Shown: positions 2,636-27,170, counted from the stretch's first letter. The stretch: 55,309 bases of DNA from an uncultured Candidatus Saccharibacteria bacterium (GCA_964596615.1 CAZQUN010000006.1:1-55309); one strand, 5' to 3'. Translations and numbers: made by a program. Notes: a model not told the origin generated them from the letters alone.

Positions 2636-2863
2636 TTATGATTTTTTCTCGACCTTTGACGGTTTTACTTCTTTAATTTTGCCAGTAGTTAAATCTATGT
2701 CATAAGTCTTGCTGGCATCCAATCGATATTTTGGATACTTATTCAATAAAAAATTCTGCCTTTGGGTCTCTAAGGCCTGAGCAATTAAGAGATACTGGTT
2801 GATTAACTCAACTCGCTTTCTTAATTCCTCTAAATCTGTTTTGTCTAATTTTTTTGAAAACAT
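2636..2863 (-). CDS. Small phage protein, unknown function
   Basis: 75-aa ORF with an ATG start, tightly packed between neighbours. Its 3' end contains one copy of the AAAGGTCGA motif. Confidence 0.6.
   Translation of the reverse strand: MFSKKLDKTDLEELRKRVELINQYLLIAQALETQRQNFLLNKYPKYRLDASKTYDIDLTTGKIKEVKPSKVEKKS
2649..2657 (-). promoter_or_regulatory. AAAGGTCGA motif copy (plus strand TCGACCTTT), 18 nt upstream of the 2631 start
   Basis: Exact 9-mer. See the motif finding. Confidence 0.6.
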
Positions 2864-2876
2864 CGTTTTTGCTTTT

Positions 2877-3980
2877 TTAAATTATTGAGCTTTCTATTTT
2901 TGACAGCCGCTTGTCTAAATCTTTTAATACCCCAACTGAAGCTAATATTAATGTATCCATTCTCATTCCCTGATTCTCACCTTTCCCGTCTTTAAGCTCT
3001 GATGCCATGCTGCTCGGGTCAATCCTGACATTATCTGATTTATTCTTTAGCTTTCTGATAATGTCTATCGCCTTTCTTACATCCATTAAGGGCTGGGAAT
3101 GAGAGACCAATCCGCCGCTGCCGTAATGAACCGAATACCAATAATTAGTGGCTATGCCTAATTGAGCTGAATTGCTTAAACTGCTGTCTGGAACGAAATG
3201 CGCGTTAGCTAAACCATTGATATAAATATGAGTGCCGTCAGCTCCGATTGAATTATTTCCGCCCCCCAAAGCCATTACTTCCCCCTCAATAGTAACGCTT
3301 GAATTGATATTGACTCCCAAACTGATATCGGCCGCTTCTACTTTAAACACACTTCCCACTGAATCGCCATAAATTATGGCTCTAGTTACACCACTGGCGT
3401 CATAGAAATGCAGAGCTTCGGTAGTTAGTTTTACCCTTAAATAAGTCGCATCATAACATTGCAGAAAATTCGTACTGTCTAATATGACCATTGGTTTAGT
3501 GGCCGAGGTTCTAACTGTCCTTCCAGTTAAAATTCCGGTGGTGATTTTATCAGCGCTCAAATCGGCAATCTTGGCATTTGTTACTTGCAAATTCCCGATA
3601 TGAGCATTAAGAATCTGACCCGTGCCAATATGAGCCGATTGAATGACTGCGTCATCTACCTGAATTGATAATGTGATTATCGCTTCGCTCTGAATTAACT
3701 TTTGAGCATTCACAGCTCCATTCTTTATTTTCTGAGTGGCTACGGCCGCGTCAGCTAATTTTTGTTCGGTTACCGCCAATGCTTTAAGGTGCTGCGTCCA
3801 GACCGCCTCATCTTCTATTTTTGCGGTCCCTACTGCTCCTGATTTTATCTGGACGCTTCCTATTGATGACGGAGCGAGCATTGGCGAATTATTGCCATCG
3901 TGAGTATGCGGAGTTGTCTCTGGAAACGGTTGATCGTCTATTTCTCTGTTTATGAAAATTTTTTTGACAAGTTTTAACAT
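2877..3980 (-). CDS. Phage tail fibre protein
   Basis: Shaft-like repeats are present: GAVGTAKIEDEAV, LADAAVATQKIKNGAVNAQKL, SAHIGTGQILNAHIGNLQVTNAKIADLSADKITTG. The C-terminal ~90 aa (LMDVRKAIDIIRKLK...VLKDLDKRLSKIE) resembles intramolecular-chaperone ends of fibres. The ATG at 3980 sits 1 nt after the upstream stop; the track start at 4016 is a TTG inside the upstream gene. Confidence 0.65.
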   Translation of the reverse strand: MLKLVKKIFINREIDDQPFPETTPHTHDGNNSPMLAPSSIGSVQIKSGAVGTAKIEDEAVWTQHLKALAVTEQKLADAAVATQKIKNGAVNAQKLIQSEAIITLSIQVDDAVIQSAHIGTGQILNAHIGNLQVTNAKIADLSADKITTGILTGRTVRTSATKPMVILDSTNFLQCYDATYLRVKLTTEALHFYDASGVTRAIIYGDSVGSVFKVEAADISLGVNINSSVTIEGEVMALGGGNNSIGADGTHIYINGLANAHFVPDSSLSNSAQLGIATNYWYSVHYGSGGLVSHSQPLMDVRKAIDIIRKLKNKSDNVRIDPSSMASELKDGKGENQGMRMDTLILASVGVLKDLDKRLSKIESSII

Positions 3981-3981
3981 G

Positions 3982-5427
3982 TTAGAGAATTCCCAATGAT
4001 TCAAAATAATTAGCAACAGCGATTACTTCTGGAGTCTCGTTGCCTGCTGGATAAAGATTTAGAGCAATTTCATATTCTTCCCCCCTGCCTTTTTCTTCTC
4101 CTTCCCCATCTCCAGTCTCAATAGTAAAGACCGCTTTGGTCATTCCCTCTTTATCAAATTGTTCTGCTCCATCTTCCATTGTTGCCTTTTTCCAGCTTTC
4201 CTCTTCGTTTAATCGGTAATAAACCTCTATGCTGCAATTTTTAGGCAATGCTCTAGTCAGAAGTTTAATATGTCGGAATCCCTTCTGAACAAATGGCTCA
4301 CCAGCGTCAAAGACCAATCCTTCATATCTGGCTTCTGCTTTATTATCTTCGTCTATGGTATCCACTCCGTAATTTGTACCATCCCTCCATGAAATATAAG
4401 GTTTATCGCTATACATTCCGATCGCCCCTATTTCGACATCCACCATTTTTCCGTGTGATAGAATATAGTCCAAATTCAAGGCATAAGGGTCATTCTTGTT
4501 TAATCTGCCGTAAGAATAAACTCCGCACTTATCTGAACCGATTAATCCAAGGACCGGCAATCCGTTCATGTTGGCTATGCCTTGTGGGTTAACCCATCCT
4601 CCGCCTGGAAGCTGCTTAATCCGAATCAAGCTCGCCGTATCCCAGAAATAAAGTCCGCCATTAACCCCTGCCTGAATGATGAGAAATTCCGCATTTAGTA
4701 TTGCGTTGATTCCTTTCTCGGCTATCATCCTTTTCTGAATCCAAGATGGTTCAATCTTATCCCAAGTCCAAAGCCATCCTTCTTCTACTTTGTCGCCTTT
4801 GGTTGAACCAATCACAACTAATTGATCGGTGTCTAATAAACATTTCGCCCGGTTGCCTGGAATTAAATCCAGGGCCTGATTGTTAAAATTTCCTTCATAA
4901 TCCACCATTGCCATGTATCTGCCATCACAAATCATTAATACTCCGCAAGCCATTCTCATCGTATGCCAAGACACATCGCCATTAAGATTTCCCCAATTAT
5001 GCTCTACATCAGTTGCCCAATTTCCAGCCAGTGGGATCCTGCTTAATTTAGTCTCGGTTGCCCAATAAAGGTATGTTTTGTATGTTCCGCCACCGTCATT
5101 ATTTGTGTATTCGCCCGCCCCGGTTATCTTTCCGTTAGCATCGGTATATTTTAACTCCCAAGCCGAAGACGGCGTGTCTTTGCTGTAAATATTTCCCGAA
5201 TTGCCGAATCCATAAATTTTGCCGTTGGTGGCTGGAACGAAGAATAAAATCAAATCGGTTACTACTGTTCCCGAATCTTTTTTTAAGGCCTGGTTGCATT
5301 TCAGAGTGTCGCCGCCTGAACGAATATCTAATCCATAACCGAATCTAAAGGCTCCCTTTACTCCTTTGTAAGCGTCATCAGCAATCCCGCCGCGGAATCC
5401 CTGAATTTTGTAAACGTTCAAGGACAT
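3982..5427 (-). CDS. Phage tail structural protein (position of tail tubular/nozzle protein B)
   Basis: 481 aa, beta-rich and W/G/N-rich. It lies between a 204-aa protein and the fibre, matching the gp11/gp12/fibre order of podoviruses. The call rests on position only. Confidence 0.4.
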   Translation of the reverse strand: MSLNVYKIQGFRGGIADDAYKGVKGAFRFGYGLDIRSGGDTLKCNQALKKDSGTVVTDLILFFVPATNGKIYGFGNSGNIYSKDTPSSAWELKYTDANGKITGAGEYTNNDGGGTYKTYLYWATETKLSRIPLAGNWATDVEHNWGNLNGDVSWHTMRMACGVLMICDGRYMAMVDYEGNFNNQALDLIPGNRAKCLLDTDQLVVIGSTKGDKVEEGWLWTWDKIEPSWIQKRMIAEKGINAILNAEFLIIQAGVNGGLYFWDTASLIRIKQLPGGGWVNPQGIANMNGLPVLGLIGSDKCGVYSYGRLNKNDPYALNLDYILSHGKMVDVEIGAIGMYSDKPYISWRDGTNYGVDTIDEDNKAEARYEGLVFDAGEPFVQKGFRHIKLLTRALPKNCSIEVYYRLNEEESWKKATMEDGAEQFDKEGMTKAVFTIETGDGEGEEKGRGEEYEIALNLYPAGNETPEVIAVANYFESLGIL

Positions 5428-5432
5428 AAATT

Positions 5433-7697: not shown

Positions 7698-8294
7698 TTA
7701 GGTTATTGGTTTTAGCTTCAAAATTAGCTGAACCTCTTTTCCTGTTCCCGCGCTGCTATCCGAAATAATCTTGTATTTGCCGCTGGCGCTTGAATCATCC
7801 TCAATTACCAATGCGATTGCTTTGCCGTCATACTCTGGCTGTTCTATGATTTCTTTAATAACATCCTTGATGTCTGGCGATTCATGCCATTGGCCTGTTG
7901 TCCAAGCCCCAGCGATATCCCAATCCACTACCGCCGTAGTCTTTGCCCTGATTGAAGGTCTGTTGCTGCCGTCTGCAGCAAAGGTATTTGGACTAACTTC
8001 TTTAATCCCTTTAATTTTCAGATTAACTGGGGTAAAACTTGCGTTGGCGTTTGCTCTTACTCTTAATTTCGCCGAGACAATTTCGCAGTTATTTGGGATA
8101 TTAGGTCTCAAAAACCGCAACCCTGCATCACAACTACCTGTGCCATCATGCCCTACGCTAATTCCGTTACTTGCGTAGCCATTCTGATACCAAGTAGTAT
8201 CATAATCTTCTTCGCCGTCATCGCTATTTAAAATAATATGTAAGCCCTGAAAAAACCTTCGCAGGTCTTGGCTTGATGGAATGAACTTAGCCAT
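7698..8294 (-). CDS. Stand-alone copy of the unknown repeat domain found in the adjacent amidase
   Basis: It shares these blocks with both repeats of the 6050-7696 protein: DGEEDY.TTWY, (L/F)RF...IP, L(K/I)IKGI.E, GSNRPS.R.KT, W.ESPD(I/L)K..I.EII, I.LVIED. Confidence 0.75.
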   Translation of the reverse strand: MAKFIPSSQDLRRFFQGLHIILNSDDGEEDYDTTWYQNGYASNGISVGHDGTGSCDAGLRFLRPNIPNNCEIVSAKLRVRANANASFTPVNLKIKGIKEVSPNTFAADGSNRPSIRAKTTAVVDWDIAGAWTTGQWHESPDIKDVIKEIIEQPEYDGKAIALVIEDDSSASGKYKIISDSSAGTGKEVQLILKLKPIT

Positions 8295-8298
8295 AAAT

Positions 8299-8616
8299 TT
8301 ATAACTCCATTATGTATTCCACGCCCTCTCCAGCTATTTCTGCCCCAACCAAAATTTTATCTGGCGAATCAACACGAAGATTAACCGATTCATTCGGCTC
8401 TAATCTAAACGGGTGAATCTTTGAGGCGTAGACATCGGCTGCTATATAAATCTTGCCTGTGTTTGCTTTTTTGGCTTTAATCACCAATTCGCAAGCGTTT
8501 CCGACTCTTTGGGCTGTTGCCAATGAATAATAATTACTCCAGGCCCCGCCATTATTTACATCAGCCGCGCAATCCTTTTCACCTGTAGTAAAATTTGGTC
8601 TGCTTTCTACTGGCAT
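8299..8616 (-). CDS. Small phage structural-module protein, unknown
   Basis: 105-aa ORF with an ATG start. An AAAGGTCGA motif lies 26 nt upstream. Confidence 0.6.
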   Translation of the reverse strand: MPVESRPNFTTGEKDCAADVNNGGAWSNYYSLATAQRVGNACELVIKAKKANTGKIYIAADVYASKIHPFRLEPNESVNLRVDSPDKILVGAEIAGEGVEYIMEL

Positions 8617-8641
8617 CTTTGTTTTATTTAATTAATCTAAA

Positions 8642-8650
8642 TCGACCTTT
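8642..8650 (-). promoter_or_regulatory. AAAGGTCGA motif copy, 26 nt upstream of the 8616 start
   Basis: Exact 9-mer in an intergenic gap, followed by TTAAAT. Confidence 0.6.
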
Positions 8651-8672
8651 ATAAAAACCCAATCCTAATCGC

Positions 8673-9089
8673 TTAGAACTTGGGCTTTTGCGCCTCTTTA
8701 GTTGATTTTGTGCTTCTGATTCCTTTAGCAGAGGCCTTTGCTCTCTCTTCTTTGCCTTGTCCTTTTAGCTTCATTTCTTTCTTTGCTACCGCTTCTTCCC
8801 GAGCTTTTACTTTTGTTTCTCTCTCTTCCAATGTTTCCAACATCTTAGCTCTCTCTTTTGCCACATTCTTTTCAACCTTAATAAAGACATTGCCGCAGTT
8901 TGGATGATTGTCTAAAAATGCGATCTCGTCTTTATCGTCAGTCTCATAGACGCCATTTTCAAACTGAATGGCGCTTCCTTGCATAACTATTACTTTGCCA
9001 CCCACCTCTTTGCTATAAGAGGCCTTATTAACCAACTTAAGATTATGGTACTTTGAGATATACTTTATCTTTTGTTTTTTTGTAGTCAT
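8673..9089 (-). CDS. Phage protein with a Lys/Glu-rich C-terminal tail (possible head accessory protein)
   Basis: 138 aa, located immediately downstream of the capsid gene and its structured 3' region. An AAAGGTCGA motif lies 30 nt upstream. Confidence 0.55.
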   Translation of the reverse strand: MTTKKQKIKYISKYHNLKLVNKASYSKEVGGKVIVMQGSAIQFENGVYETDDKDEIAFLDNHPNCGNVFIKVEKNVAKERAKMLETLEERETKVKAREEAVAKKEMKLKGQGKEERAKASAKGIRSTKSTKEAQKPKF

Positions 9090-9118
9090 TGTTTTATTGA
9101 CTCTTAATTTAACTTTGT

Positions 9119-9127
9119 TCGACCTTT
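9119..9127 (-). promoter_or_regulatory. AAAGGTCGA motif copy, 30 nt upstream of the 9089 start
   Basis: Exact 9-mer, followed after 6 nt by TTAAAT. Confidence 0.6.
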
Positions 9128-9135
9128 TAACTATG

Positions 9136-9193
9136 TAGCAGGCTCTCTTGCTCGGCTGATCCAGAGAGCCGTTTCAGCCGAGCAACTTTGCTA
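9136..9193 (-). ncRNA. Structured element in the capsid gene 3' region (interleaved 12-bp and 7-bp helices within a 5-bp closing stem)
   Basis: TTGCTCGGCTGA (9148-9159) pairs with TCAGCCGAGCAA (9174-9185). GGCTCTC (9141-9147) pairs with GAGAGCC (9164-9170). TAGCA (9136-9140) pairs with TGCTA (9189-9193). Confidence 0.5.
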
Positions 9194-9269
9194 CAAGGAT
9201 ATAGCGTTCCCGGGTTTCTGTTCACAAGCACCGAGAAAGCTCGGAATCTTATTCAGGATTTAAAACTGG

Positions 9270-10436
9270 TTATAGGGCAGCCTTACTCATGATGGCATGA
9301 CGTGATTCCTGTTCCATTTGAAGACCGCATTCGGTCAAGTATTCATCTACTCGGCTATCTTCGCCTGGGGCCTGTCGATTAGTTAACAGCTTGGTATCTC
9401 GATTGCTCAAATAACAATAGGTTAAACCTTCCATATCTACCATGACAGCGTAATTGCCATAGGTCGTCCCAGCTAATAACGGATGCTTAATCATATGGAC
9501 AAGTCCGTGCGGTGAAATATAATCTATAATCTGCAATCCGTAGGCCTTGGCTTTATCTACCACCTGTAACTTTCCTTTGGCCCAACTATTTACCATTGAA
9601 ATCACGGCCGCTGCGGCAAAAAGATATTTTTCCACATTTCCGTGAGCAAAGGCGCTTTCTAACCAACTTTCAAATTCAGCCTCTGTATCCACATTAGCCG
9701 TAGCGTAACTGGAAATCTTATCTATAACTCCACCAGTAAATCTCTTGGGATGAGTTCCGCTGGTGTCTTCGGCTCTTTTGCCAAACATAAACGCCCTTTC
9801 AATATCCACCATATGCTCCACCGCTTTCTTCCTTCTCTGATAATCGAAGTCATTTTCTTTAGTCCATCCTTTAGTGTTTTTGGCGGTCTCAGTAATTCCA
9901 ATCGGGGTTCTGAAAATCTGACAGTAATTATACGGCTGGCTAATTGTGGTCGTCTTAATATCTCTCAATCCAGCACCTTCCTCGTTGACATTACCAATAA
10001 TCCAAACATCGCCTGTTGCGTCTGCGGCCGCTCCAGTTGCTCCGCCTTTTTCCGCTCCAACCGTTACGGTGTTAGCATCTACAATAGCCGTAACCTCAAA
10101 CACCCATTTCTGAAGCGCGACTAAAAGCACGTCTCCGACTTGGCAGTATTGACTTTGCCCCGTAATAGTGAGGTTTCCGCCATCTGGATCAAGCGTTCCC
10201 GAACCAGTTAACTTCCTTTTACCATACTCGTCCTCAAACCATTTAAATGTAGGGTCGGTCGTCTCTCTCTTCTTCATTGCCTTTCCTTGATTGGTTACCG
10301 GGTCTTTCCCAGCATTAGTCAGAATTCCTATCAGCGGATATCGATTTATGTCCAATAAAGAAATTACATCGGCTACATCATATTTCCGACTCACGCCTAA
10401 ATTACCAGTTCCTCTAATTCCTGTTGCTGAAGGCAT
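9270..10436 (-). CDS. Major capsid protein (HK97-fold expected)
   Basis: 388 aa, directly downstream of the acidic scaffold gene. Among the phage gene starts I examined, this is the only one with a clear SD (AAGGAG, 9 nt before the ATG). It is followed by a 180-nt structured untranslated region. Size and position are typical of a major capsid protein. Confidence 0.7.
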   Translation of the reverse strand: MPSATGIRGTGNLGVSRKYDVADVISLLDINRYPLIGILTNAGKDPVTNQGKAMKKRETTDPTFKWFEDEYGKRKLTGSGTLDPDGGNLTITGQSQYCQVGDVLLVALQKWVFEVTAIVDANTVTVGAEKGGATGAAADATGDVWIIGNVNEEGAGLRDIKTTTISQPYNYCQIFRTPIGITETAKNTKGWTKENDFDYQRRKKAVEHMVDIERAFMFGKRAEDTSGTHPKRFTGGVIDKISSYATANVDTEAEFESWLESAFAHGNVEKYLFAAAAVISMVNSWAKGKLQVVDKAKAYGLQIIDYISPHGLVHMIKHPLLAGTTYGNYAVMVDMEGLTYCYLSNRDTKLLTNRQAPGEDSRVDEYLTECGLQMEQESRHAIMSKAAL

Positions 10437-10574
10437 TTTTATTTTCTCCTTAAATTACTATTGAGAGATTCGACTAAATTCTCTCAAGAGTTTTTAGCCA
10501 CCAACTTGCGGAACTGTCTGCAGATTCACTGGCAGAGTTCTCGATTGGAGAGCAGGGCCACTGCTTCTCCCTTT

Positions 10575-11405: not shown

Positions 11406-11438
11406 AATTCAATTATTTTTAGTTATTTAAATTAGGGT

Positions 11439-11447
11439 TCGACCTTT
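11439..11447 (-). promoter_or_regulatory. AAAGGTCGA motif copy, 34 nt upstream of the scaffold start and overlapping the upstream TAA stop
   Basis: Exact 9-mer, followed after 6 nt by ATTTAAAT. Confidence 0.6.
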
Positions 11448-11661: not shown

Positions 11662-11662
11662 G

Positions 11663-11917: not shown

Positions 11918-11919
11918 AA

Positions 11920-12213: not shown

Positions 12214-12237
12214 GATTTTGAATAATAATTTAATTAT

Positions 12238-12246
12238 TCGACCTTT
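12238..12246 (-). promoter_or_regulatory. AAAGGTCGA motif copy, 25 nt upstream of the 12213 start and overlapping the upstream TAA stop
   Basis: Exact 9-mer, followed after 3 nt by ATTAAAT. Confidence 0.6.
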
Positions 12247-12702: not shown

Positions 12703-12711
12703 TCGACCTTT
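12703..12711 (-). promoter_or_regulatory. AAAGGTCGA motif copy, 26 nt upstream of the 12677 start and 1 nt after the portal stop
   Basis: Exact 9-mer, followed after 7 nt by ATTTAAT. Confidence 0.6.
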
Positions 12712-17466: not shown

Positions 17467-17499
17467 AATCCATCTATTAATTTATTTTATTCTTTTTCC

Positions 17500-17570
17500 T
17501 TATCCTCCCGACCTTTGCCTCTTGTGTGCTGGTCGTTGCGCCAATCCACAAGCCAACGAGACGAGGATAA
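17500..17570 (-). ncRNA. Structured intergenic element between terL and the cargo genes
   Basis: The closing stem is TTATCCTC (17500-17507) with GAGGATAA (17563-17570). Inside, two helices interleave: CTTGTG (17521-17526) with CACAAG (17547-17552), and TCGTTG (17533-17538) with CAACGA (17554-17559). Confidence 0.4.
17508..17516 (-). promoter_or_regulatory. Variant motif AAAGGTCGG, 42 nt upstream of the 17466 start
   Basis: One mismatch. It is embedded in the 17500-17570 structured element. Confidence 0.4.
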
Positions 17571-17668
17571 CATTTCTCTCGTTTTCTCGCAGTCAACATT
17601 ATTACCAGCATACTCTTTTCAAGTCAAATTAAATTAAAATAAAAATAACGAAAATATAAAAAATTTCT

Positions 17669-19201: not shown

Positions 19202-19742
19202 GATGTTTTTTGATTAGTTCATCTATTTCCCTACCTTCTTCTTCCTCTTCTGGGGTTAACGGCCTCTGTTCCTCTTCTTTTAGTGCGAATCTACTTGTTG
19301 GCTTTCCTAATTCAACCTGAAGCATCTCCCAAAGCTCTTTCACTTCATGAACAGTCGATCCTTCACCTTCCCTTACTTGCTTCCTTAGCTTTTGTATTTT
19401 TTCCCAGAATGCTTCGGCTATAATATATATCTTCTTACGAGTGATTTCTTGGGCCTTCTTCTTTAATCCCTCTAAATCCTCGGATAATTTTAGATCTGTT
19501 CTTTTAACCCATCTATATTTTATCGACCATCTTTTGATCGTGCTTTTGGCCAAAGGACTACCCAATCTCTTTATTATTTCACTCAATTCTGGTCTCACTT
19601 CGGTCTCATTAAGTCTCACGCCTTTCCAGAATCTAATTAGTTTATCTATGCTTCCCAATTCACAATACAAAAGCCAAGCCGTGTATTGTTTCTCGGTTTC
19701 TTCGGGCCTTTTTGAAGTTGTTAATTCTGGTTTTTTAGGCAT
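19122..19742 (-). CDS. Terminase small subunit (putative, HTH-like N-terminus)
   Basis: 206 aa, immediately upstream of terL and overlapping it by 80 nt. It has a basic N-terminus, a coiled-coil centre and an acidic/basic tail. Confidence 0.45.
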   Translation of the reverse strand: MPKKPELTTSKRPEETEKQYTAWLLYCELGSIDKLIRFWKGVRLNETEVRPELSEIIKRLGSPLAKSTIKRWSIKYRWVKRTDLKLSEDLEGLKKKAQEITRKKIYIIAEAFWEKIQKLRKQVREGEGSTVHEVKELWEMLQVELGKPTSRFALKEEEQRPLTPEEEEEGREIDELIKKHHEQLRKRKYPILDRQKQHKRRKGTKD

Positions 19743-19746
19743 GTTT

Positions 19747-21096
19747 TTAAAACAAAGGTTGTTGAGCTAATCTTCTTTTGATGATTTTGATGTATTCAGG
19801 ATTTAATTCTATACCAATCCAATTCCTGCCAAGACTTTGAGCTACCAAAGCGGTGGTGCCTGCCCCCATAAAAGGATCTAGAACTATCCCTGCTTTATAT
19901 TCTGGATTTTTACAATCACATTTTGTCCAACCAATAGTTTTACCAGCATATTTGACAGTATTATCACCTTTTCTTTCCCCCTTTTGACGCCTTTTAAGAT
20001 ATTCTCCCGAGGTGGCGCCAATTCCTTTATGCTTTCCTTTATTTAAATTCTCTATTAATCTTTCTCTGGCTTTTCCGCATTTGACACAAATTTCAGCCGG
20101 GCAAGAACTCTTAATCATTGGCTCTATTAATTTAGCTGGAAATGTGGCGAAATGCGCCTCGGGAAATCCTCTCGTAGATATAGTCCATACATCTCCTGGA
20201 TTCTTCCCGCCTTTTGGCAACTCAATCATTTTTCTTTTACCGCCTGATTTTAAGGAACCGGTCATTCTCGCCTTGCTTCCAGTTCCCTGATCTCCATAAG
20301 GATTCATTAAATATTTTGCCCGTTGAATAGACGCTGTCTTATGAGGTTTCCTGATAGCATCTAAATCAAAATAATATCTATTGGCTTTGGTCAAGAAAAA
20401 TACCAGTTCATAGCAAGTAGTCAGGCGGTCTTTCACGCTTGAAGGCATTGCGTTGGGCTTATGCCATATGATTGAATTTCTAAGTACCCAGCCCTGTTCA
20501 TCAATCATTCTCAAAATCAGACGATAATTCTGAAGCATTAAACATTTAGCAGGATAATTTTGGGGCTGTGGGGGTTTATTTTTATCAGGCACCCAATTGA
20601 TTTCTTTTGAAGAACTAATATTGTCATAGGTTGTCCTCCTGCCATGACTTCCTAATCCCGTTGAATAATTATCGCCATGATTCCAAAACATTACTCCAGT
20701 CGGCTTTAAAACTCTTTTAAGTTCAGCTGCAATTTGAAGAATATGTTCTATAAATAATTCTAAGGTCGGCTCTAACCCCAATTGCCCATACCAGGCCCCG
20801 CATCTTTGACAAAAACCTTCCTTCCTGATTCTATTAACATCCATATTCGCCGCTATTCCTTTTTTATCAAATTGACCATGCCCGCCCCTGTAATTCGGGT
20901 CCCTCTTTTTTTCTAACTTAAATTTATGTTTGCATTTTAAGTCGCCGCCCCAAACGATTCTGGTTTGATCACCATAATCCCTTAACCCCCAGTAAGGCGG
21001 ACTAGTGACTATTGTGTCTATGGTATCTGCTGGAAAAGTTCGTAAAATTTCAATCGCATTTCCACAAATAACTCTGTTTATTGGCAGCTTTTTCAT
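19747..21096 (-). CDS. DNA methyltransferase, beta class, SPPY motif IV (N4-cytosine or N6-adenine)
   Basis: Motif IV is IVTSPPYWGLRDYG near the N-terminus and motif I is VLDPFMGAGTTALVA near the C-terminus. An LGLEPT block is also present. No partner endonuclease is seen. Confidence 0.85.
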   Translation of the reverse strand: MKKLPINRVICGNAIEILRTFPADTIDTIVTSPPYWGLRDYGDQTRIVWGGDLKCKHKFKLEKKRDPNYRGGHGQFDKKGIAANMDVNRIRKEGFCQRCGAWYGQLGLEPTLELFIEHILQIAAELKRVLKPTGVMFWNHGDNYSTGLGSHGRRTTYDNISSSKEINWVPDKNKPPQPQNYPAKCLMLQNYRLILRMIDEQGWVLRNSIIWHKPNAMPSSVKDRLTTCYELVFFLTKANRYYFDLDAIRKPHKTASIQRAKYLMNPYGDQGTGSKARMTGSLKSGGKRKMIELPKGGKNPGDVWTISTRGFPEAHFATFPAKLIEPMIKSSCPAEICVKCGKARERLIENLNKGKHKGIGATSGEYLKRRQKGERKGDNTVKYAGKTIGWTKCDCKNPEYKAGIVLDPFMGAGTTALVAQSLGRNWIGIELNPEYIKIIKRRLAQQPLF

Positions 21097-21123
21097 GAAG
21101 CGTGTAATGTATCTACCTTTTCA

Positions 21124-21153
21124 GAAAAACCGCACACAAGCCCATCTGTGCGG
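21124..21153 (-). terminator. Rho-independent terminator after the ParB-methylase gene
   Basis: The minus strand reads CCGCACA-GATGGGCTTG-TGTGCGG followed by TTTTT, starting right after the stop codon. Confidence 0.7.
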
Positions 21154-22431
21154 CTACTTCTTGGGTAATTGGCTAATTCTTGTCCATCTCTGGCGAATTA
21201 CATCGCACCAGCGCGGGTCCAACTCCATTAGGTAGGCTGTTCTTTCCAACTTATGAGCTGCCATCAAAGTTGATCCACAGCCCGCAAATAAGTCCACTAC
21301 TAATTGTCCGACCTTGCTTGAATTTTTAATCGTTCTCATTATAAGCCATTCTGGTTTCTCGGTTGGGTGAAGCATCTTGGTAATAGCTTTCCTGGGCATT
21401 TCCCAAACATCGCTTTGACTCAAGTCGCCATAAAAATAATGTCTCTGCCCTTTTTTCCAGCCGTAGATAATTGGTTGCGCCTTACTACCACTTCTTCCCT
21501 TTTTACCTTTCATCACTTGTTCGTATTGTTTTTTATAATCTCCCCAGCCCATTGAGAAAGATGGCTTGACCCAAACAATCGTGGTCGAAAACTCAAATCC
21601 TGCATTAAGCATTTGGTAATAAAATAAGGGATAGGATGTATAGCCGGTGCAGATATAAATTGTCTTGCCCGGTTTTAGTAGCCGATTATAGCTATCAAAA
21701 AATTTTTGGGTGAACTCACTAAATTCCTCCTGGCTTTGCTGGTCCCCAAGAATCTTTCCTTTCTCGGTTGGAAATTTTCCTCTTTTCTCATGGCTAATAT
21801 GGGATACATTATAAGGCGGGTCGGTAAAAACCATATCTGCTTGCTCTTCGCCCATTAGCTTTTCGATATCTTCTATCTTGGTAGAATCGCCGCACATTAG
21901 TTTATGCCTGCCCAAATTGTAAATCTCGCCATATTTTGATTGGGATTTTTTCTTTAACATCTCTTGTTCTTTTTCTATCTCTGTCTCCGGGTCTCCTTCT
22001 TTTCGTAGCATTTGCGTATCCAATAAATTACTAATTTCTACTTCATTGAATCCGCTCAAAGTTAAATCAGCGTCTGCCCGACTTAAATCATGGATTAATT
22101 CTGCTAATTTACTTTCATCCCAATCCGCTTTGATTCTATTCAATGCTAAATTAAGAAGTTTTTCTTTATTCTCTGACAAATTTACTTCTACATAAGGAAT
22201 TGATTCCCATCCTAATTCTGTTGCCGCCTTTACTCTCATATTGCCTCCGACTACAATATTTTCTCTATTTTTATACTTATTTATTACTATTGGCTCTACA
22301 CATCCAAACCCGCTCATTGATCTTTTGAGCGACTCGTATTCTTTGGCTGACATTTCTCTAGGATTATAATAAGCCAGTTTCAGCTTCTTTATTTCTATTT
22401 CTGGATAGTTTTTTTGGTTAGTTTTCGCCAT
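21154..22431 (-). CDS. ParB-like N-terminal domain fused to an N6-adenine-type DNA methyltransferase (DPPY)
   Basis: The N-terminus is ParB-like (VEPIVINKYKNRENIVVGGNMRVKAATELGWESIPYVEV). Motif IV is VFTDPPYNV and motif I is VVDLFAGCGSTLMAA. Confidence 0.85.
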   Translation of the reverse strand: MAKTNQKNYPEIEIKKLKLAYYNPREMSAKEYESLKRSMSGFGCVEPIVINKYKNRENIVVGGNMRVKAATELGWESIPYVEVNLSENKEKLLNLALNRIKADWDESKLAELIHDLSRADADLTLSGFNEVEISNLLDTQMLRKEGDPETEIEKEQEMLKKKSQSKYGEIYNLGRHKLMCGDSTKIEDIEKLMGEEQADMVFTDPPYNVSHISHEKRGKFPTEKGKILGDQQSQEEFSEFTQKFFDSYNRLLKPGKTIYICTGYTSYPLFYYQMLNAGFEFSTTIVWVKPSFSMGWGDYKKQYEQVMKGKKGRSGSKAQPIIYGWKKGQRHYFYGDLSQSDVWEMPRKAITKMLHPTEKPEWLIMRTIKNSSKVGQLVVDLFAGCGSTLMAAHKLERTAYLMELDPRWCDVIRQRWTRISQLPKK

Positions 22432-22697
22432 AATTTTTTAGAGTAAAATTTAACTCTTAGCCAAATCTTCAACCAGAAAGGCAACTGTCTATATGCTTGG
22501 CTCATAACTTCTTTTTTCATTCTTGATATTCTTCGTCTTTGGGCCTCAGCTAATAATTCTGGATTAATATAAGTCCCGCCGATTAATCTCTCTCGGTTTT
22601 TTCTTCTGGCCCACCGATCTTTCTTTGGGTTATTCAACCCCATTACTTCTCTTCTTTTTTCTTTTTGTTGTTTATTTTCCTTCTCCATTTTCTTCAT
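22395..22697 (-). CDS. Small, very basic phage protein, unknown
   Basis: 100-aa ORF with an ATG start (alternative ATG at 22643). It overlaps both neighbours. Confidence 0.4.
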   Translation of the reverse strand: MKKMEKENKQQKEKRREVMGLNNPKKDRWARRKNRERLIGGTYINPELLAEAQRRRISRMKKEVMSQAYRQLPFWLKIWLRVKFYSKKLWRKLTKKTIQK

Positions 22698-22941
22698 TGA
22701 TTATTTTTTCTATAGTCTTTAAAGCTTGCTCCCGTTTTAAGATTTGCGATTTATAGTCTTTGACCAAATCTTTTTTTGTAATCTCTTGTTCTCTTCTGCC
22801 GAACGGAGTCTGTTTAGCAGTAATATCAATAATTTCACTGTCTTTGCGATCATCAAGATTACGAATGGCCACTTCCATTCGAATTTTATCTTCCAAAACA
22901 GAGTCATGAATGATTTCTAAAATTTGTCGTTTGGTTTTCAT
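22672..22941 (-). CDS. Small phage protein, unknown
   Basis: 89-aa ORF with an ATG start, preceded by a large structured intergenic element. Confidence 0.55.
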   Translation of the reverse strand: MKTKRQILEIIHDSVLEDKIRMEVAIRNLDDRKDSEIIDITAKQTPFGRREQEITKKDLVKDYKSQILKREQALKTIEKIINEENGEGK

Positions 22942-22973
22942 GACACACGATTTTACAACTATCCTGATTCCAA

Positions 22974-23055
22974 CCCAGGCCGCCTCTGCTTTTTATCCCT
23001 CAGTTCTTTATTTTCAAAAGGTCGAAGAGGGTCGACCTAACAGAGACGGCCCGGG
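22974..23055 (-). ncRNA. Large intergenic stem-loop (15-bp closing stem that is only fully paired on the minus-strand RNA)
   Basis: CCCAGGCCGCCTCTG (22974-22988) pairs with CAGAGACGGCCCGGG (23041-23055). The two non-Watson-Crick positions are G.U on the minus strand and A.C on the plus strand. Confidence 0.55.
23017..23037 (+). promoter_or_regulatory. Inverted-orientation motif copy AAAGGTCGA plus the palindrome GGTCGACC
   Basis: The plus strand reads AAAGGTCGAAGAGGGTCGACC. This is the only copy in the opposite orientation, and it sits inside the 22974-23055 stem-loop. Confidence 0.5.
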
Positions 23056-23063
23056 CGAATCTT

Positions 23064-23363
23064 TTAGATGTCTAGATTATCCAACCCTGAATCTTTGCCA
23101 ATGCGGCTCCCTGGTTGAGCTGGGACTTCCAACTTGATATTTAATCTGGCTCGATTCTTGGCTCCTATCGCATTCATTACCATTCTGATGGCTTGAATGG
23201 TTTTCCCTTGTCGTCCAATAACCAATCCTGCATCTCCATCGCCAAGTTTAACCGAAAGCAAAACCCCCATCTCATCGGTTGTTTTCGCCACCTTTACCTC
23301 TTCAGGCTTAGTGACAATCGCTTTTAGAATAGTTTCTAAAAGTTCTGTGATTTTATCGTTCAT
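23064..23363 (-). CDS. khpA: Phage-encoded KH-domain RNA-binding protein (KhpA/UPF0109-like), paralogous to the host gene at 29959-30303
   Basis: The protein begins MNDKITELLETILKAIVTKPEEVKVAKTTDEMGVLLSVKLGDGDAGLVIGRQGKTIQAIRMVMNAIGAKNRARLNIKLEVP. It aligns by eye with the host protein through DEMGVLL, the GXXG loop IGRQG, AIR and KN.AR.N.K.E.P. The ATG at 23363 is preferred because the track start is a TTG. Confidence 0.8.
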   Translation of the reverse strand: MNDKITELLETILKAIVTKPEEVKVAKTTDEMGVLLSVKLGDGDAGLVIGRQGKTIQAIRMVMNAIGAKNRARLNIKLEVPAQPGSRIGKDSGLDNLDI

Positions 23364-23393
23364 TGTTTTATCTTTATTCCTTAAATTATTTTT

Positions 23394-23402
23394 TCGACCT
23401 TT
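23394..23402 (-). promoter_or_regulatory. AAAGGTCGA motif copy, 31 nt upstream of the phage khpA-like start and overlapping the upstream TAA stop
   Basis: Exact 9-mer, followed after 7 nt by ATTTAAG. Confidence 0.6.
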
Positions 23403-23943
23403 ATTTATCCCAGCAATTCTGACTCTGTTGCCAGTGCTGGCTTCCTTCAATTTTTAATAAATATAAAGCAGCTTGATAATTTAACTCGGCATCAAAAGGA
23501 CTCCCATCTGTTCCCATTCCTCTCATCACATAATCCCAAGTGTCTGGAATAAATTGAGCCAAGCCCATTCCGCCTTCGCATCCATACTCTTTATTGCAAA
23601 CGCTTGCATCCCACTCACTTTCGCAGGTTATAATTCTCTCAAGAAGTAATCTTCTTTGTATCTCTGATTCTGGCTCTATTTTCTCCTCAAGTTTTCCTTC
23701 TGGCGTCATGATATAAACCCTGCCTTTAATAATGGCTTTTTCGCCTTCTGGCAAAACTTCAAGAATGCTATTCATCATTTCCTTTTCTATGCATTTACAT
23801 TCCGGGCATATCCATTCGTCACAACATTCCCATCCCTTCTTCCACTCTGTATATGTCCCATAAATAAAACTAACTAAAAACAAAATTATCATTGTTGCAA
23901 TAATTAGGGTTACTCGAAAAATTCTGACTTGATATCGATTCAT
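23401..23943 (-). CDS. Membrane-anchored lytic transglycosylase (SLT domain)
   Basis: It has an N-terminal TM segment (VTLIIATMIILFLVSFIYG). SLT blocks are ITCESEW (catalytic Glu-Ser), GGMGLAQFIPDTW and YQAALYLL. The ATG at 23943 forms an ATGA overlap with the upstream stop; the ATG at 23961 is also possible. Confidence 0.75.
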   Translation of the reverse strand: MNRYQVRIFRVTLIIATMIILFLVSFIYGTYTEWKKGWECCDEWICPECKCIEKEMMNSILEVLPEGEKAIIKGRVYIMTPEGKLEEKIEPESEIQRRLLLERIITCESEWDASVCNKEYGCEGGMGLAQFIPDTWDYVMRGMGTDGSPFDAELNYQAALYLLKIEGSQHWQQSQNCWDK

Positions 23944-24347
23944 TGTTTTAATTCTGCCCATGATGGAAGAAAATATTCCCTTTCTACTCTATATTGGATA
24001 CATTCATTAAAAGCTATCCGTACTAATTCCTTACTGTCTAAATCGCTTAACTCTGGTTGTAGTTCAAATTTTCTTTCAATAAAATGCAAAAGATGATGAC
24101 AAAAATCATGCATTTCTGACTCTATCCTTTCCTCGGCATCTCGTTTTCCTCTTCCATAAATTTCCTGAATCAATGCTTGAGGAATTTTATCTTCAGTTAT
24201 CGGCTCTTTATTTTGTGATGCCTTATACCAAAACCATCCTGAAAATTTTGAACACCACCTGTAATCCTTTGGGCATTCTTTTGGATCGCAACGAAAAGAA
24301 AAATGATTTTTAATTGGACAAATTTGGGGAGTTAGATTTTTTTTCAT
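23940..24347 (-). CDS. Phage protein, unknown (Cys/His-containing N-terminus)
   Basis: 135-aa ORF with ATGA overlaps at both ends. Confidence 0.55.
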   Translation of the reverse strand: MKKNLTPQICPIKNHFSFRCDPKECPKDYRWCSKFSGWFWYKASQNKEPITEDKIPQALIQEIYGRGKRDAEERIESEMHDFCHHLLHFIERKFELQPELSDLDSKELVRIAFNECIQYRVEREYFLPSWAELKQ

Positions 24348-25195
24348 GATTTTGATTCCTTATAAATAGCTCTCATAACTTTAGTCCCGTCTGGCCGAAC
24401 AATTTCTTCCCATCTAATTATTTTTCGACCTTTCTTTTTCTTCTGGGCAACTACTTCATCTATGAATTTAGTAATGGTTTCCAGGGTAAATTTCTTGATA
24501 TAATCTGTGTTTTTAACTGCTTTGACGGTATCGCAAATATCCTCATTGCTATAACCATTTAAGAGTCGGGCTGGCTTACAATTCCTCTGAATAATGGACT
24601 GGATTTGCTCGTCGTTTTCTGGGTGCAGCTCTTTTTCTTTTATCCAAATCCCGATTATTTGGATGTGTCGCTTCTGATCTTTTAAAAGATTTTCTATCTC
24701 TTTTTCTAAATCCCAGTCCGTCGGCTTGTCCGACATATTCTTTTTGTAAACAGATTTGTTTTGTAAGGCGGTTTGTTTTGTAGCACGCATTTTTTGCTTA
24801 GTTATTTTTGCCACGCATTTTTTGCTACCTTTTATCCTGCCTATAAAAGTTTTTCCTAATCTGTAGAAAATTTTACCGCCGCGACCTATTCTTTCTCTTT
24901 TTCTCGGCGTATCTAATAATTCGCCGTTTTCATCTCTGGCCTCTATCCATTCTTGCTTGATGCAGTTGTTAATTGCATCTGTTATTGATCTACCTTTCTT
25001 GCCAGTCAATCGTATTAGTTGACTTCTTGAAATCCAGTCTTCTTCTTTCCTCATTCCTGTTTCTGGATCTGCTATCCAGCCCAATGTTTTTCTGGTCACT
25101 ATCAACACAATCCTTAATTCGGTATCTTTCATTTTTGCCATTTCCCCGTTAAGTAATTTATTGGGAACTTGAGTTGTGTTTGGAAGATTTGACAT
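24344..25195 (-). CDS. Replication initiator/replisome organiser (phage RepO-like winged-helix N-terminus)
   Basis: The N-terminal pattern is TTQVPNKLLNGEMAKMKDTELRIVLIVTRKTLGW...DWISRSQLIRLTGKKGRSITDAINNCIKQEWI. This matches the 'vPN..l...L...E.rv.l.i.R.T.GW...is.sql...TG' signature of phage O-type initiators. Confidence 0.65.
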   Translation of the reverse strand: MSNLPNTTQVPNKLLNGEMAKMKDTELRIVLIVTRKTLGWIADPETGMRKEEDWISRSQLIRLTGKKGRSITDAINNCIKQEWIEARDENGELLDTPRKRERIGRGGKIFYRLGKTFIGRIKGSKKCVAKITKQKMRATKQTALQNKSVYKKNMSDKPTDWDLEKEIENLLKDQKRHIQIIGIWIKEKELHPENDEQIQSIIQRNCKPARLLNGYSNEDICDTVKAVKNTDYIKKFTLETITKFIDEVVAQKKKKGRKIIRWEEIVRPDGTKVMRAIYKESKS

Positions 25196-25257
25196 AACAT
25201 GGAACGAAACAAGCCCTCTGCTATTAGGACAAGTTTCTTTATTTAATTTATTCGCCT

Positions 25258-25341
25258 CTCATCTCTGCTCCCGCTTGCTCGGCTCATGCCCCTGCGGTGA
25301 ACCTACAAGGAAGGAGCAAGGAAAGGAGCAGAGTCAGGGGC
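25258..25341 (-). ncRNA. Structured element B (conserved ends CTCATCTCTG...CAGAGTCAGGGGC), directly after the ATPase gene stop
   Basis: The 9-bp outer stem is CTCTGCTCC (25263-25271) with GGAGCAGAG (25325-25333). The inner stem is CTTGCTC (25274-25280) with GAGCAAG (25314-25320). Confidence 0.55.
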
Positions 25342-25344
25342 GAA

Positions 25345-26457
25345 TTACCGCTTATTCTTATCTTCTTTTCTTTGAATTACTAACATTGTCTGTCCGCCTT
25401 TTTTCTTGTATTCAGCCCTTCCAGCTTCTACCACTAAATCCATAATTTCTCGATATCCATCCTTCAATGCATCAGGCATCAATCCTTTGATCGCTGTCAT
25501 GCTGGTCGTGCCAAACGCCTTGTAAAGAGTGTCTAGCTTAAACTGCTTGTCTGCTCCGTTGTATCCTGGGGCAACTCGGGCAAGCAATCCTTCAATTTCT
25601 TCAATCCATTTATCTCGTTCTTTTCTGAATACCAGCTTTTGTTCTTCGGTCTTAAACAGGACTGCCGCATCTCCTTCTGGTGTTAATATAGATTTCTTAT
25701 CGAACGGATTATCCATCATCGCTTCGATAGTTGGGGCAAAATTCTCAAAAGTCGGGTTTTTGAATGTCTTGCCGTCCAGTAACGCTGCTCTATCTTTTAA
25801 GACAGTCGCTTCTCTCCAAACTTTCTTTTCATCTTTTCCGATCACTTCCTCGTATCTTTCCATTAAAAGCAGCATATCTGGCTCGTAGGCGGTTTCTCCC
25901 TCTACTTTCATCTTGACACCTGACTTATAGATTTCTCGCTTGCGAGTATCTGGATTGATTTCACTCTCATACTCATAACCGGCCCGGCCACACATAATAA
26001 TGTGATAAGGCTCATTGACGAATGGTTCAGAAAATTCTTGCTTCCAAGTCGGCTTGATAATCCCCCAATCCTGAAATTGCAGAAATGTCCGATTGGCCTT
26101 CTTCCGATACGCTTCAAGGAAGTTCTCCCAGACATGCGAGATTGAATCTATAATCAGGATATCCCCGGCTCCTTCTTTCATTCTTCTCATCGTTTCTTTT
26201 AAGTCGGCTAGCGACTTTGACTCGCGCACTAAGAGTTTAATTTTCTTTTCGGCAAATAACGGCTTTAAGAATTTAGCTGCCTTTTCAGTGTCAAATATCA
26301 CTATCGGCTTTTTTGATTTAATTCTCTGATGCAACCCTCTGGCAATTAAGGATGCGGTGTAAGTCTTGCCGCTGCCAGCGAAACCTTCTAAAGCTGCTTT
26401 AAAGAACGGCTTGGTGTTATCGGCTGCGGTAAAGAAATCATCTTTCTTTCTGGTCAT
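25345..26457 (-). CDS. P-loop ATPase (AAA_24/Sak4-like phage NTP-binding protein) with a C-terminal extension
   Basis: Walker A is GFAGSGKTYTA and Walker B is ILIIDSISHVWE. It lies in the replication module. 370 aa. Confidence 0.7.
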   Translation of the reverse strand: MTRKKDDFFTAADNTKPFFKAALEGFAGSGKTYTASLIARGLHQRIKSKKPIVIFDTEKAAKFLKPLFAEKKIKLLVRESKSLADLKETMRRMKEGAGDILIIDSISHVWENFLEAYRKKANRTFLQFQDWGIIKPTWKQEFSEPFVNEPYHIIMCGRAGYEYESEINPDTRKREIYKSGVKMKVEGETAYEPDMLLLMERYEEVIGKDEKKVWREATVLKDRAALLDGKTFKNPTFENFAPTIEAMMDNPFDKKSILTPEGDAAVLFKTEEQKLVFRKERDKWIEEIEGLLARVAPGYNGADKQFKLDTLYKAFGTTSMTAIKGLMPDALKDGYREIMDLVVEAGRAEYKKKGGQTMLVIQRKEDKNKR

Positions 26458-26574
26458 GGTAGTTATCCTATTGACCTCGCCAAAGTTCTCAATTATACTT
26501 TCTTTAGGTGAGGACTTCTGGCTTCGGTCAGAAGTTCTTTCTATTTCAGATGGTTTTTACAAGTTTTCCTTCTT

Positions 26575-26583
26575 GCGACCTTT
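26575..26583 (-). promoter_or_regulatory. Variant motif AAAGGTCGC upstream of the ATPase gene
   Basis: One mismatch. It lies 118 nt upstream of the 26457 start, just after structured element C. Confidence 0.35.
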
Positions 26584-26600
26584 TAGCGAGCGGTTAGCCG

Positions 26601-26720
26601 CTCATCTCTGGGCTGGTAAGTCTTGAGGTTTATGACCACCATCTTCTGACTTACGCTGAGAATAGTGCGCTCCATCCCAGACAAGGTGGATTGTCTCCCT
26701 CACAGCCCAGAGTCAGGGGC
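26601..26720 (-). ncRNA. Structured element C (same conserved ends as B), directly after the 26720-26944 gene stop
   Basis: The 10-bp outer stem is CTCTGGGCTG (26606-26615) with CAGCCCAGAG (26703-26712). Inner hairpins are GTAAGTC/GACTTAC and GACAA/TTGTC. Confidence 0.55.
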
Positions 26721-26944
26721 TAATCTTCTGTCACTTTAATTTTCCCGTTTGAAAGAGCTTGCCTTTCTATTTCTAAATCCAGATTGTAGATTATTTCTTT
26801 ATTAGGAAGTTTAACTGCTCTGTTTCTAACTGTGATTTCCACTTTATCGCCATCGTCATTATGAATTCTTATCTTCCTGGTCCTATTCTTAACATCGGTT
26901 TTTGGCAAAATGATATGGGGAAATTGTTTGCCGCGCGGCTTCAT
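26720..26944 (-). CDS. Small phage protein, unknown
   Basis: 74-aa ORF with an ATG start forming an ATGA overlap with the upstream 57-aa ORF. It is followed immediately by a 120-nt structured element. Confidence 0.55.
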   Translation of the reverse strand: MKPRGKQFPHIILPKTDVKNRTRKIRIHNDDGDKVEITVRNRAVKLPNKEIIYNLDLEIERQALSNGKIKVTED

Positions 26945-27114
26945 AGTTGTATCGCTTTAATAGCTACTTCTTTTACCTTCTTGCTACTTATTTCTTTACG
27001 GTGTTTATCCATGGCTCGTTTTACTGCTACTGCCATTCTACTTGCTCCTTCCCGGTATTCCTTTTCTACGGGGTAGGGAAGTTCAACTTTGATTTTTATA
27101 AGATAATTTTTCAT
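26941..27114 (-). CDS. Small phage ORF (57 aa), below the track cutoff
   Basis: My translation is MKNYLIKIKVELPYPVEKEYREGASRMAVAVKRAMDKHRKEISSKKVKEVAIKAIQL. Its TGA overlaps the ATG of the next gene (ATGA). It fills an otherwise empty 250-nt gap on the coding strand. Confidence 0.45.
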   Translation of the reverse strand: MKNYLIKIKVELPYPVEKEYREGASRMAVAVKRAMDKHRKEISSKKVKEVAIKAIQL

Positions 27115-27161
27115 TATTCTTTCCTTTCTCTCTTTCTCTAGTTTAACCAGATCTCGCTGGC

Positions 27162-27170
27162 CCGACCTTT
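27162..27170 (-). promoter_or_regulatory. Variant motif AAAGGTCGG, 48 nt upstream of the 57-aa ORF
   Basis: One mismatch. It lies directly after the HTH-gene terminator. Confidence 0.4.

Follow-up and report, generated by a model that had tools for sequence, protein, structure and literature searches.

A conserved nine-nucleotide word in front of late genes of Candidate Phyla Radiation prophages, a candidate single-element late promoter

The late promoters of phage T4 consist of a single 8-nt element at −10 (TATAAATA) with no −35; they are read by gp55/gp33 together with the sliding clamp, and occur in dozens of copies before late genes, with a short leader after each. The T4 middle promoters carry the MotA box (a/t)(a/t)(a/t)TGCTT(t/c)A, an asymmetric 9-bp box that replaces the −35 element and is used by a phage activator with AsiA. 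At the RNA level, phage mRNAs carry the RegB GGAG cleavage sites and the RegA operators of T4, and the boxA of lambda nut, itself a 9-mer. We know of no experimental work on gene control by phages of the Candidate Phyla Radiation (CPR)/Patescibacteria, and of little on how translation starts in CPR hosts. Here we analyzed a 55,309-nt stretch of DNA (the window) from an uncultured Candidatus Saccharibacteria bacterium (GCA_964596615.1, CAZQUN010000006.1:1-55309), of which positions 1 to ~27400 are a prophage, with every phage open reading frame (ORF) on the minus strand, and the rest is host DNA. In this prophage a 9-mer, AAAGGTCGA in gene sense and TCGACCTTT on the plus strand, recurs in front of phage genes. 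In phage phiEco32, six middle and late promoters share one 9-nt element, tAATGTAtA, with starts 6–8 bp downstream; their reader is gp36, a phage-encoded sigma factor devoid of region 4 (PMC8948821).

By analogy, the phiEco32 promoters appear to be the closest characterised case to the present word, as both consist of a single 9-nt element and the present phage also has SU10/phiEco32-type capsid and adaptor domains. The sequences are unrelated, however, and six promoters there compare with ~8–10 copies in roughly 38 kb here; no gp36-like sigma or gp79-like cofactor is detectable in the present phage, where the word in many cases joins directly onto the preceding stop codon, and mapped starts are those of phiEco32. 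With the T4 late promoters the word shares the single element, the many copies before late genes and the short leaders, but the T4 element is A/T-only whereas the word is built around a G/C-rich core, GGTCG; the present phage yielded no homologue of gp55, gp33 or the clamp; and T4 leaders have Shine-Dalgarno (SD) sites, whereas most leaders here do not. The MotA box, centred at −30, needs a sigma-70 −10 element 11–13 bp downstream, in contrast with the word, which has no −10-like element at a fixed offset and hence does not behave as a MotA-type promoter. The phage RNA sites are likewise short single-stranded words in intergenic mRNA near translation starts, but RegA operators are far less conserved, RegB sites are much shorter and nut occurs once or twice per genome, against 8–10 identical 9-mers here. 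Literature searches for the sequence of the word returned primers and unrelated matches only, and yielded no paper on CPR promoters or leaderless genes and nothing on late-promoter motifs of CPR phages.

An exact-match scan of the window found eight plus-strand copies of TCGACCTTT, at 2649, 8642, 9119, 11439, 12238, 12703, 23394 and 24425, precisely those listed by a first-pass annotation of this DNA, and one minus-strand copy (23017). The expectation is 0.49 ± 0.69 copies, and none of 100 shuffles exceeded two. That annotation had placed seven of the eight same-strand copies between genes; six are indeed intergenic, whereas the copy at 2649 falls in the final codons of a gene, just ahead of the next one, and that at 24425 is intragenic. 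The motif end is 17–33 nt from the ATG, close to the 18–34 nt first given. At 11439, 12238, 12703 and 23394, the four cases already pointed out, the word overlaps or adjoins the stop codon of the gene before it. One-mismatch variants are present, as reported, at 17508 and 27162 (AAAGGTCGG) and at 26575 (AAAGGTCGC), and one-mismatch matches as a class are not enriched (22 vs 16 expected). The claim that the word is confined to the phage also stands: exact copies are absent from the 28 kb of host DNA in the window, in which the 7-mer core is about as frequent as expected by chance.

Relatives were fetched via the capsid protein, which gave 25 viral contigs and 19 genome contigs, and their prophages were viewed over at most 10 kb to each side; two of them, contig A (loci L045 and L055) and contig B (L053 and L056), are nearly complete. 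Retrieval with the tail gene 1300-2631 found no relatives. The relatives found through the capsid are prophages, and the CPR/Patescibacteria genomes that harbor them bear the labels Woesebacteria, Daviesbacteria, Doudnabacteria and Nomurabacteria. Public contigs carrying gene 8673-9089 are ordinary metagenome assemblies, and the phage is present in the samples behind SRR24302413 and SRR8146440, among others. The exact word is the top or near-top 9-mer, on the gene strand only, in L001, L008, L010/L011, L012, L014, L015/L016 and L036–L040, and L043 has three copies, all of them in sense; the capsid proteins of these motif-bearing loci are between 95% and 59% identical to that of the window. Seven non-redundant loci (135.6 kb) together hold 45 sense copies vs 1 antisense copy (binomial p = 1e-12), and 34 of the 45 are intergenic, where the intergenic share of the sequence is 14.6% (p = 7e-20). 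The non-intergenic copies in relatives are mostly explained by conserved peptides, such as KVDA in the portal and KKVE in the capsid protein. The description of the word as phage- and gene-strand-specific, mostly intergenic and upstream of gene starts thus extends beyond the window. The junctions shared among relatives are those after the portal, before the scaffold, after the capsid hairpin, after the terminator of the next gene and before a tail gene, and in the L001 contig the word also stands in front of the endolysin. Flanking bases have diverged while the word at orthologous junctions stays exact, in phages with capsid proteins only 55–95% identical, so that the absence from related phages which the first-pass annotation would have counted against function does not hold for these loci; more distant relatives have TAAAGGTCGC, TAAAGGTCGG or TAAAGGTCTA at the same junctions. 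These results show that this is a real, conserved cis-regulatory word: a clean and easily scored signal that marks the late regulon of a widespread CPR prophage family and, whether it acts in DNA or in RNA, offers a handle for annotating transcription units of uncultured phages.

We built a logo from 56 intergenic sites in 12 loci, using positions 1–7 for site finding. The result is a sharply bounded 9-mer with near-invariant positions 0–8, in which the two end positions left free in the search are A in 52/56 and 49/56 sites. Upstream there is a weak T/A preference only, and downstream the sequence is A/T-rich and nearly G-free. The seventh base after the word is A in 42/61 sites; pyrimidine-purine steps are most frequent at this point, with further peaks 4 and 8 nt beyond it. 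The distance from motif start to ATG is 39 ± 6.6 nt with a minimum of 26 among the 56 sites, and the ATG is never less than 17 nt past the motif end, in the window or in the logo sites. At the post-capsid junction, the motif-to-ATG distance varies from 29 to 50 nt among relatives. We found no second box at a fixed distance from the word: the A/T box proposed earlier as a second element dissolves into AATTAA-like strings that peak at two offsets (10–15 and 19–20) in a generally A/T-rich, G-poor leader. The lack of resemblance to a sigma-70 −35/−10 pair is confirmed by the logo, which has no informative positions outside the 9-mer and no preferred offset for TAnnnT, and by scans of 8000-27600, where sigma-70 consensus matches are not enriched (35 vs 42.8 expected). 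A general model in which the motif is the −35 element of leaderless promoters was also rejected: the mean of 39 nt fits, but orthologous sites range over 29–50 nt and no −10 keeps a constant distance from either motif or ATG. Several copies lie directly downstream of stable hairpins with a U-run, for instance 8651-8689 and 27176-27214. The word is not itself part of an intrinsic terminator, being unpaired in most contexts and adjoining such hairpins, and a variant lies in a stem only at 23019-23038. At E ≤ 1, neither the motif regions nor the leader of the capsid gene matched any Rfam family.

The relatives fall into two regimes, in that the word divides otherwise syntenic phages into those that use strong SD sequences and lack it and those that are SD-poor and carry it. 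L009, L032, L033 and L035 have the gene order of the window and zero copies of the word. Orthologous junctions read stop-GAGGT-8 nt-ATG in SD-type relatives, as at the counterpart of the scaffold-gene junction at 11439, and stop/AAAGGTCGA/24–41 nt/ATG in motif-bearing ones, and an SD-like sequence precedes 84/215 genes in SD-type loci vs 25/157 in motif-type loci. Upstream of host genes in the window, and likewise of early genes in relatives, TTGACA-N16-18-TATAAT ends 6–10 nt before the ATG, so that both sets of genes would be leaderless or nearly so. Many host genes in 29215-54756 have TTGACA-N17-TATAAT and no SD, for example upstream of 33824, 43574, 36617 and 32240. Judged by these upstream regions, host genes are apparently leaderless despite a canonical 16S tail (GAUCACCUCCUUUCUA, with CCUCCU).

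On balance, we consider it probable that AAAGGTCGA is the core element of phage-specific late promoters of the single-element type, read on DNA by a putative phage factor. A phage-specified sigma-like protein or activator would bring the host RNA polymerase to the single 9-bp element, and transcription would begin ~7 nt downstream, typically at an A following a pyrimidine. With a start at the preferred A seven bases past the word, the 9-mer would span about −15 to −7 and the transcripts would carry short A/U-rich, G-poor leaders of 11–41 nt. If the hosts hardly use SD sequences and initiate mainly on leaderless mRNAs or short unstructured leaders, each late gene not coupled to an upstream stop would need its own start, and hence its own copy, which would account for 8–10 copies per genome, often fused to a TAA stop or placed after a terminator-like hairpin. 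Virion, lysis and accessory genes make up the set so served, with the endolysin of the L001 contig among them; early genes of relatives have ordinary TTGACA/TATAAT promoters 6–9 nt from the ATG. In agreement with such a promoter, the word is one sharp 8–9-bp element without a −35, repeated upstream of late genes in gene orientation. Taken as sequence patterns, the enrichment, the strand and position bias, the conservation, the logo, the A seven bases past the word, the spacing of at least 17 nt, the position after hairpins, the composition of the late regulon and the kinship with SU10/phiEco32 would all be consistent with it, as would the order in L014, where the motif is followed in the same leaders by an SD-like AGGA 9–11 nt before the ATG. 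This promoter-leader-ribosome-binding-site order argues against the motif as a substitute for the SD. The first-pass annotation had offered a promoter, an operator or an RNA processing or re-initiation signal without choosing; the evidence leans to the promoter, and re-initiation is weakened by the terminator-like hairpin between the upstream stop and several copies and by the L014 leaders.

The reader protein of the motif was not found. Pfam and PHROGs searches with all ORFs of the window and of contigs A and B gave no Sigma70_r2, ECF or gp55-like match. Phage sigma factors can diverge strongly, 7-11 sigma being 15% identical to gp36 (PMC8948821). If the word is a promoter, a sigma-like or activator protein that escaped these searches is expected among the small ORFans, and one basic 100-aa ORFan (22395..22697, minus strand) may be considered a candidate on its phyletic pattern only. 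It is full-length only in motif-bearing contigs, and SD-type relatives have a 48–61-aa version, C-terminal only, at the corresponding position. L077 is an exception: it has four good sites, yet the 15.9 kb available of this locus do not contain the gene. The ORFan has three close homologues in the indexed database, and its AlphaFold model, all-helical and of low confidence (predicted TM score 0.28), is not usable; given the sequence comparisons, it may serve as a weak lead rather than a finding.

Several observations weigh against a promoter read on DNA, beginning with the absence of any detected sigma factor, RNA polymerase or known late activator in the window and in contigs A and B. No promoter-like word is seen at the corresponding junctions of SD-type relatives that share the gene order, so that ancestry does not require promoters at these sites. 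For intergenic copies the predicted RNA accessibility slightly exceeds that obtained with shuffled flanks (0.58 vs 0.51, p = 3e-4), an excess not seen for coding copies. The capsid gene, the most expressed of all, has only a weak motif variant, held in a 138-nt non-coding structured leader (10437-10575, minus strand) that runs from the scaffold-like gene to the capsid gene and has an upstream hairpin at 10547-10571. This leader is kept in the window phage, L001, L008, L010, L012, L014 and L036, and is lacking in L040 and the SD-type relatives. Its last hairpin (10458..10490, minus strand) displays the loop AGTCGAA (10469-10475), 33 nt from the ATG (10436); for every one of the 10 predicted pairs, one sequence or more shows changes on both sides with pairing retained, and in the loop GTCG is invariant in eight relatives, within (A/G)GTCGAA and at the usual distance from the ATG. 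L014 has GGTCGAA in this loop, and L040, without the leader, has cAAGGTCGA at the corresponding place. In L040 and L050, moreover, the motif lies inside hairpin loops. A reader of RNA or of single strands is a more natural fit to such loop display than a reader of DNA; alternatively, going by these predicted structures, display in a loop could help a sigma-like reader of the non-template strand, which would save the promoter model.

The same observations sustain the main alternative, that the signal acts in RNA. Here AAAGGUCGA, in the polycistronic late mRNA, would serve as the binding site of a phage protein or the cleavage site of a ribonuclease and would control the stability or translation of the downstream cistron, being recognised single-stranded, in an unstructured A/U-rich context or in a hairpin loop. 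We regard this as possible, if on the unlikely side. In addition to the covarying stem with its invariant GUCG(A)A loop, the loops of L040 and L050 and the accessibility, it is favored by the sequestration of a sense variant in the hairpin after the KH gene, by the variation of the ATG distance from 29 to 50 nt between orthologous sites, and by the SD-type relatives, which cope at these junctions without a promoter-like word. The word often abuts the U-run of terminator-like hairpins, however, and transcripts terminated there would lack it. Sense copies of AAGGTCGA inside coding regions are not depleted (20 vs 14.3 expected), which makes a cleavage site less likely; antisense AGGTCGA inside genes (4 vs 7.6 expected) does not differ significantly from expectation. 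The KH protein, the phage's one RNA-binding protein, is found across the relatives with or without the word, and at the same level of identity in those that lack it, so that we rejected it as a specific reader. To our knowledge, a sharply bounded 9-nt word before many genes is nearly always a promoter in characterised phages, which also counts against an RNA site. A specific form of this alternative, in which a dedicated phage protein recognises the word as a single-stranded RNA signal and thereby licenses translation of each late cistron, or stabilises it, in SD-less hosts, we find doubtful; it is likewise rather improbable that such a signal replaces the ribosome-binding site as a module gained and lost as the phages move between SD-using and SD-less CPR hosts. 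An RNA site would represent a new way of expressing internal cistrons without an SD.

We think it unlikely that the word is itself an SD substitute, that is, a standby site, or a site of re-initiation after the fused stop, which recruits or retains ribosomes for internal cistrons. The motif cassette does occupy the place of stop-SD-ATG at orthologous junctions, the motif-bearing phages have few SD-like sites (the 25/157 vs 84/215 given above) and the stop overlaps the word at four window sites. Yet the word lacks a complement in the host 16S rRNA: pairing with the canonical tail would be limited to AAAGG, the motif ends 17–47 nt from the ATG, and the best match elsewhere in the 16S is 8/9, needs G-U pairs and lies in a non-functional region. 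Pairing with rRNA or tRNA was therefore rejected, the tRNA match being on the wrong strand. The word is absent from host genes in the window, hairpins separate several copies from the stop codon, and L014 has the motif and AGGA in series. The SD-poor relatives L022 and L021 lack the word. Given L014, L022 and the lack of 16S complementarity, the word accompanies SD-poor gene expression but is not simply an SD substitute.

Little weight also falls on an operator, a DNA site at which a phage repressor or activator, such as the helix-turn-helix (HTH) protein 27190-27372, would flank promoters with a degenerate A/T-rich core downstream. An asymmetric 9-bp site would suit a monomeric HTH protein, this one has weak profile matches to Sigma70_r4 and to a ‘late transcriptional activator’, and A/T-rich, TAAAT-like strings follow the word; but no −10-like element lies at a fixed offset and sigma-70-like matches are not enriched (35 vs 43 expected). 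The suggestion that the HTH protein binds the word found no support: the protein has a weak homologue beside the integrase of contig B, and a scan of the collection with the two aligned gave only unrelated contigs. In contig B, a tyrosine integrase precedes the homologous HTH gene, and in the window at most ~200 nt separate the prophage edge from the 3′ end of the gene for 16S rRNA, with no 23S gene after it (27373-29121). The two together suggest that the phage attachment site may adjoin the 16S gene just downstream. Finally, a word with no regulatory role, be it a Chi-like or DNA-uptake-sequence (DUS)-like recombination or uptake signal, a methylation or restriction target of the two phage DNA methyltransferases, or a relic of a mobile cassette, is very improbable, because although Chi and DUS are likewise strand-biased, over-represented 8–12-mers and the phage does encode two such enzymes, the word, unlike Chi, DUS and methylation sites, is almost only intergenic (34/45 copies) and stands at conserved junctions, 17–47 nt ahead of start codons (motif start to ATG, 39 ± 6.6 nt), and flanking repeats and target duplications are absent.

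The individual sites described next are on the minus strand. The exact copy at 2649..2657, whose ortholog in L001 is at 17840, is part of the final 7 codons of gene 2636-2863 and stands 17 nt from the ATG (2631) of gene 1300-2631. The copy at 8642..8650, 25 nt from the ATG (8616) of gene 8299-8616, abuts the U-run of the terminator-like hairpin 8651-8689 (−18.6 kcal/mol, z −3.7), an arrangement of hairpin and motif kept in L001, L008, L012 and L036. At 9119..9127 the motif is 29 nt from the ATG (9089) of gene 8673-9089 and downstream of the hairpin 9141-9170 that follows the capsid gene; motif and upstream hairpin recur at this junction in L001, L008, L010, L012 and L014, with stem bases that vary among relatives. 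The next two copies overlap stop codons: 11439..11447 the TAA of gene 11446-11661, 33 nt from the ATG (11405) of the scaffold-like gene 10575-11405, and 12238..12246 the stop of gene 12246-12677, 24 nt from the ATG (12213) of gene 11920-12213. The copy at 12703..12711 stands 1 nt past the portal stop and 25 nt from the ATG (12677) of gene 12246-12677. This junction has the motif in L001, L008, L012, L036, L051 and L052, and AAAGGTCGC or AAAGGTCGG in L013, L017 and L020, loci in which the word takes the forms AAAGGTCGC, AAAGGTCGG and AAAGGTCTA. The copy at 23394..23402, kept in L045, overlaps the stop of gene 23401-23961, 30 nt from the ATG (23363) of the KH gene 23064-23363.

The variant AAAGGTCGG at 17508..17516 is 41 nt from the ATG (17466) of gene 16651-17466, and its counterpart is the exact 9-mer in L001 (2340), L008 (3144) and L012 (324). 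The same variant at 27162..27170 follows the terminator-like hairpin 27176-27214 (−19.6 kcal/mol) by 5 nt and precedes the ATG (27114) of gene 26941-27114 by 47 nt, with an SD-like AAGGA in its leader. Membership of AAAGGTCGC at 26575..26583 in the motif set is doubtful, as its geometry is atypical (~117 nt to the ATG, 26457, of the AAA_24 ATPase gene). The exact copy at 24425..24433, inside the RepO-like gene 24344-25195, codes for KKGRK; no long ORF starts within 60 nt of it and the matching part of the L050 homologue has no copy, and it is probably a coding coincidence. The inverted copy that had been placed in a palindrome near 23017-23037 is indeed paired: in the terminator-like hairpin 23019..23038 (minus strand, −10.3 kcal/mol), located after the KH gene and kept in the L001 contig, the sense variant (tt)AGGTCGA pairs with the sole inverted copy, TCGACCT, and UUUU follows.

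Among the prophage genes, all on the minus strand, are those for the small terminase (19122-19742), the large terminase (17669-19201), the portal (12713-14686), the acidic scaffold-like protein (10575-11405, ATG 11405), the SU10-type capsid protein (9270-10436, ATG 10436) and the KhpA-like KH-domain protein (23064-23363); further late genes encode an SU10-type adaptor, tail proteins and a tail-associated amidase. The early genes encode the RepO-like protein (24344-25195), the AAA_24 ATPase (ATG 26457) and the small HTH protein (27190-27372). The KhpA-like KH RNA-binding protein is a core gene product of the whole phage family, found in nearly all relatives; in SD-type relatives its gene lies within the structural module with a strong SD in front. 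The loci L002–L007 and L023, with their terminase loci L069, L072 and L074–L076, belong to 54–62-kb SD-type contigs in which the capsid/tail module lies ~30 kb from the terminase module and, in contrast with the window, the portal is not adjacent to the capsid. Upstream of the portal, 14910-14881 holds a near-consensus TTGACA-N18-TAAAAT, and portal genes of relatives are preceded by TGTACA-N17-TATACT. A strong hairpin with a U-run (14659-14630) falls within the listed portal ORF, so that the true start is probably a later Met (MAEETK...). The interval between terminase and portal (14916-17466) holds three non-virion genes, preceded by a motif variant, and its content differs among relatives; on our reading of the sequences, these would encode a YceG/MltG-like protein and two proteins with N-terminal hydrophobic segments. 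Past the left edge of the window, the L001 contig, the closest relative (L055, 17800-19600), has a diversity-generating retroelement, with a bAvd accessory protein and a reverse transcriptase, after the lysis genes.

In the host part, the 16S rRNA gene (27584-29121) is bacterial, and Rfam at gathering threshold reported on the window the 16S rRNA, three tRNAs, LOOT and nothing else. The LOOT RNA (RF03000, 75.8 bits; 42742-42866, minus strand) is directly upstream of the host N6/N4 DNA methylase gene 40929-42683. A low-GC (33–35%) gene block on the plus strand (43643-49490), with a large serine recombinase at its end abutting tRNA-Gln (49308-49381), is probably a second integrated element. Within it, cAAGGTCGc at 45769 lies 38 nt before the ATG of the DUF5659 gene 45807-46079, a geometry like that of the phage motif, and the likeness is possibly due to chance.

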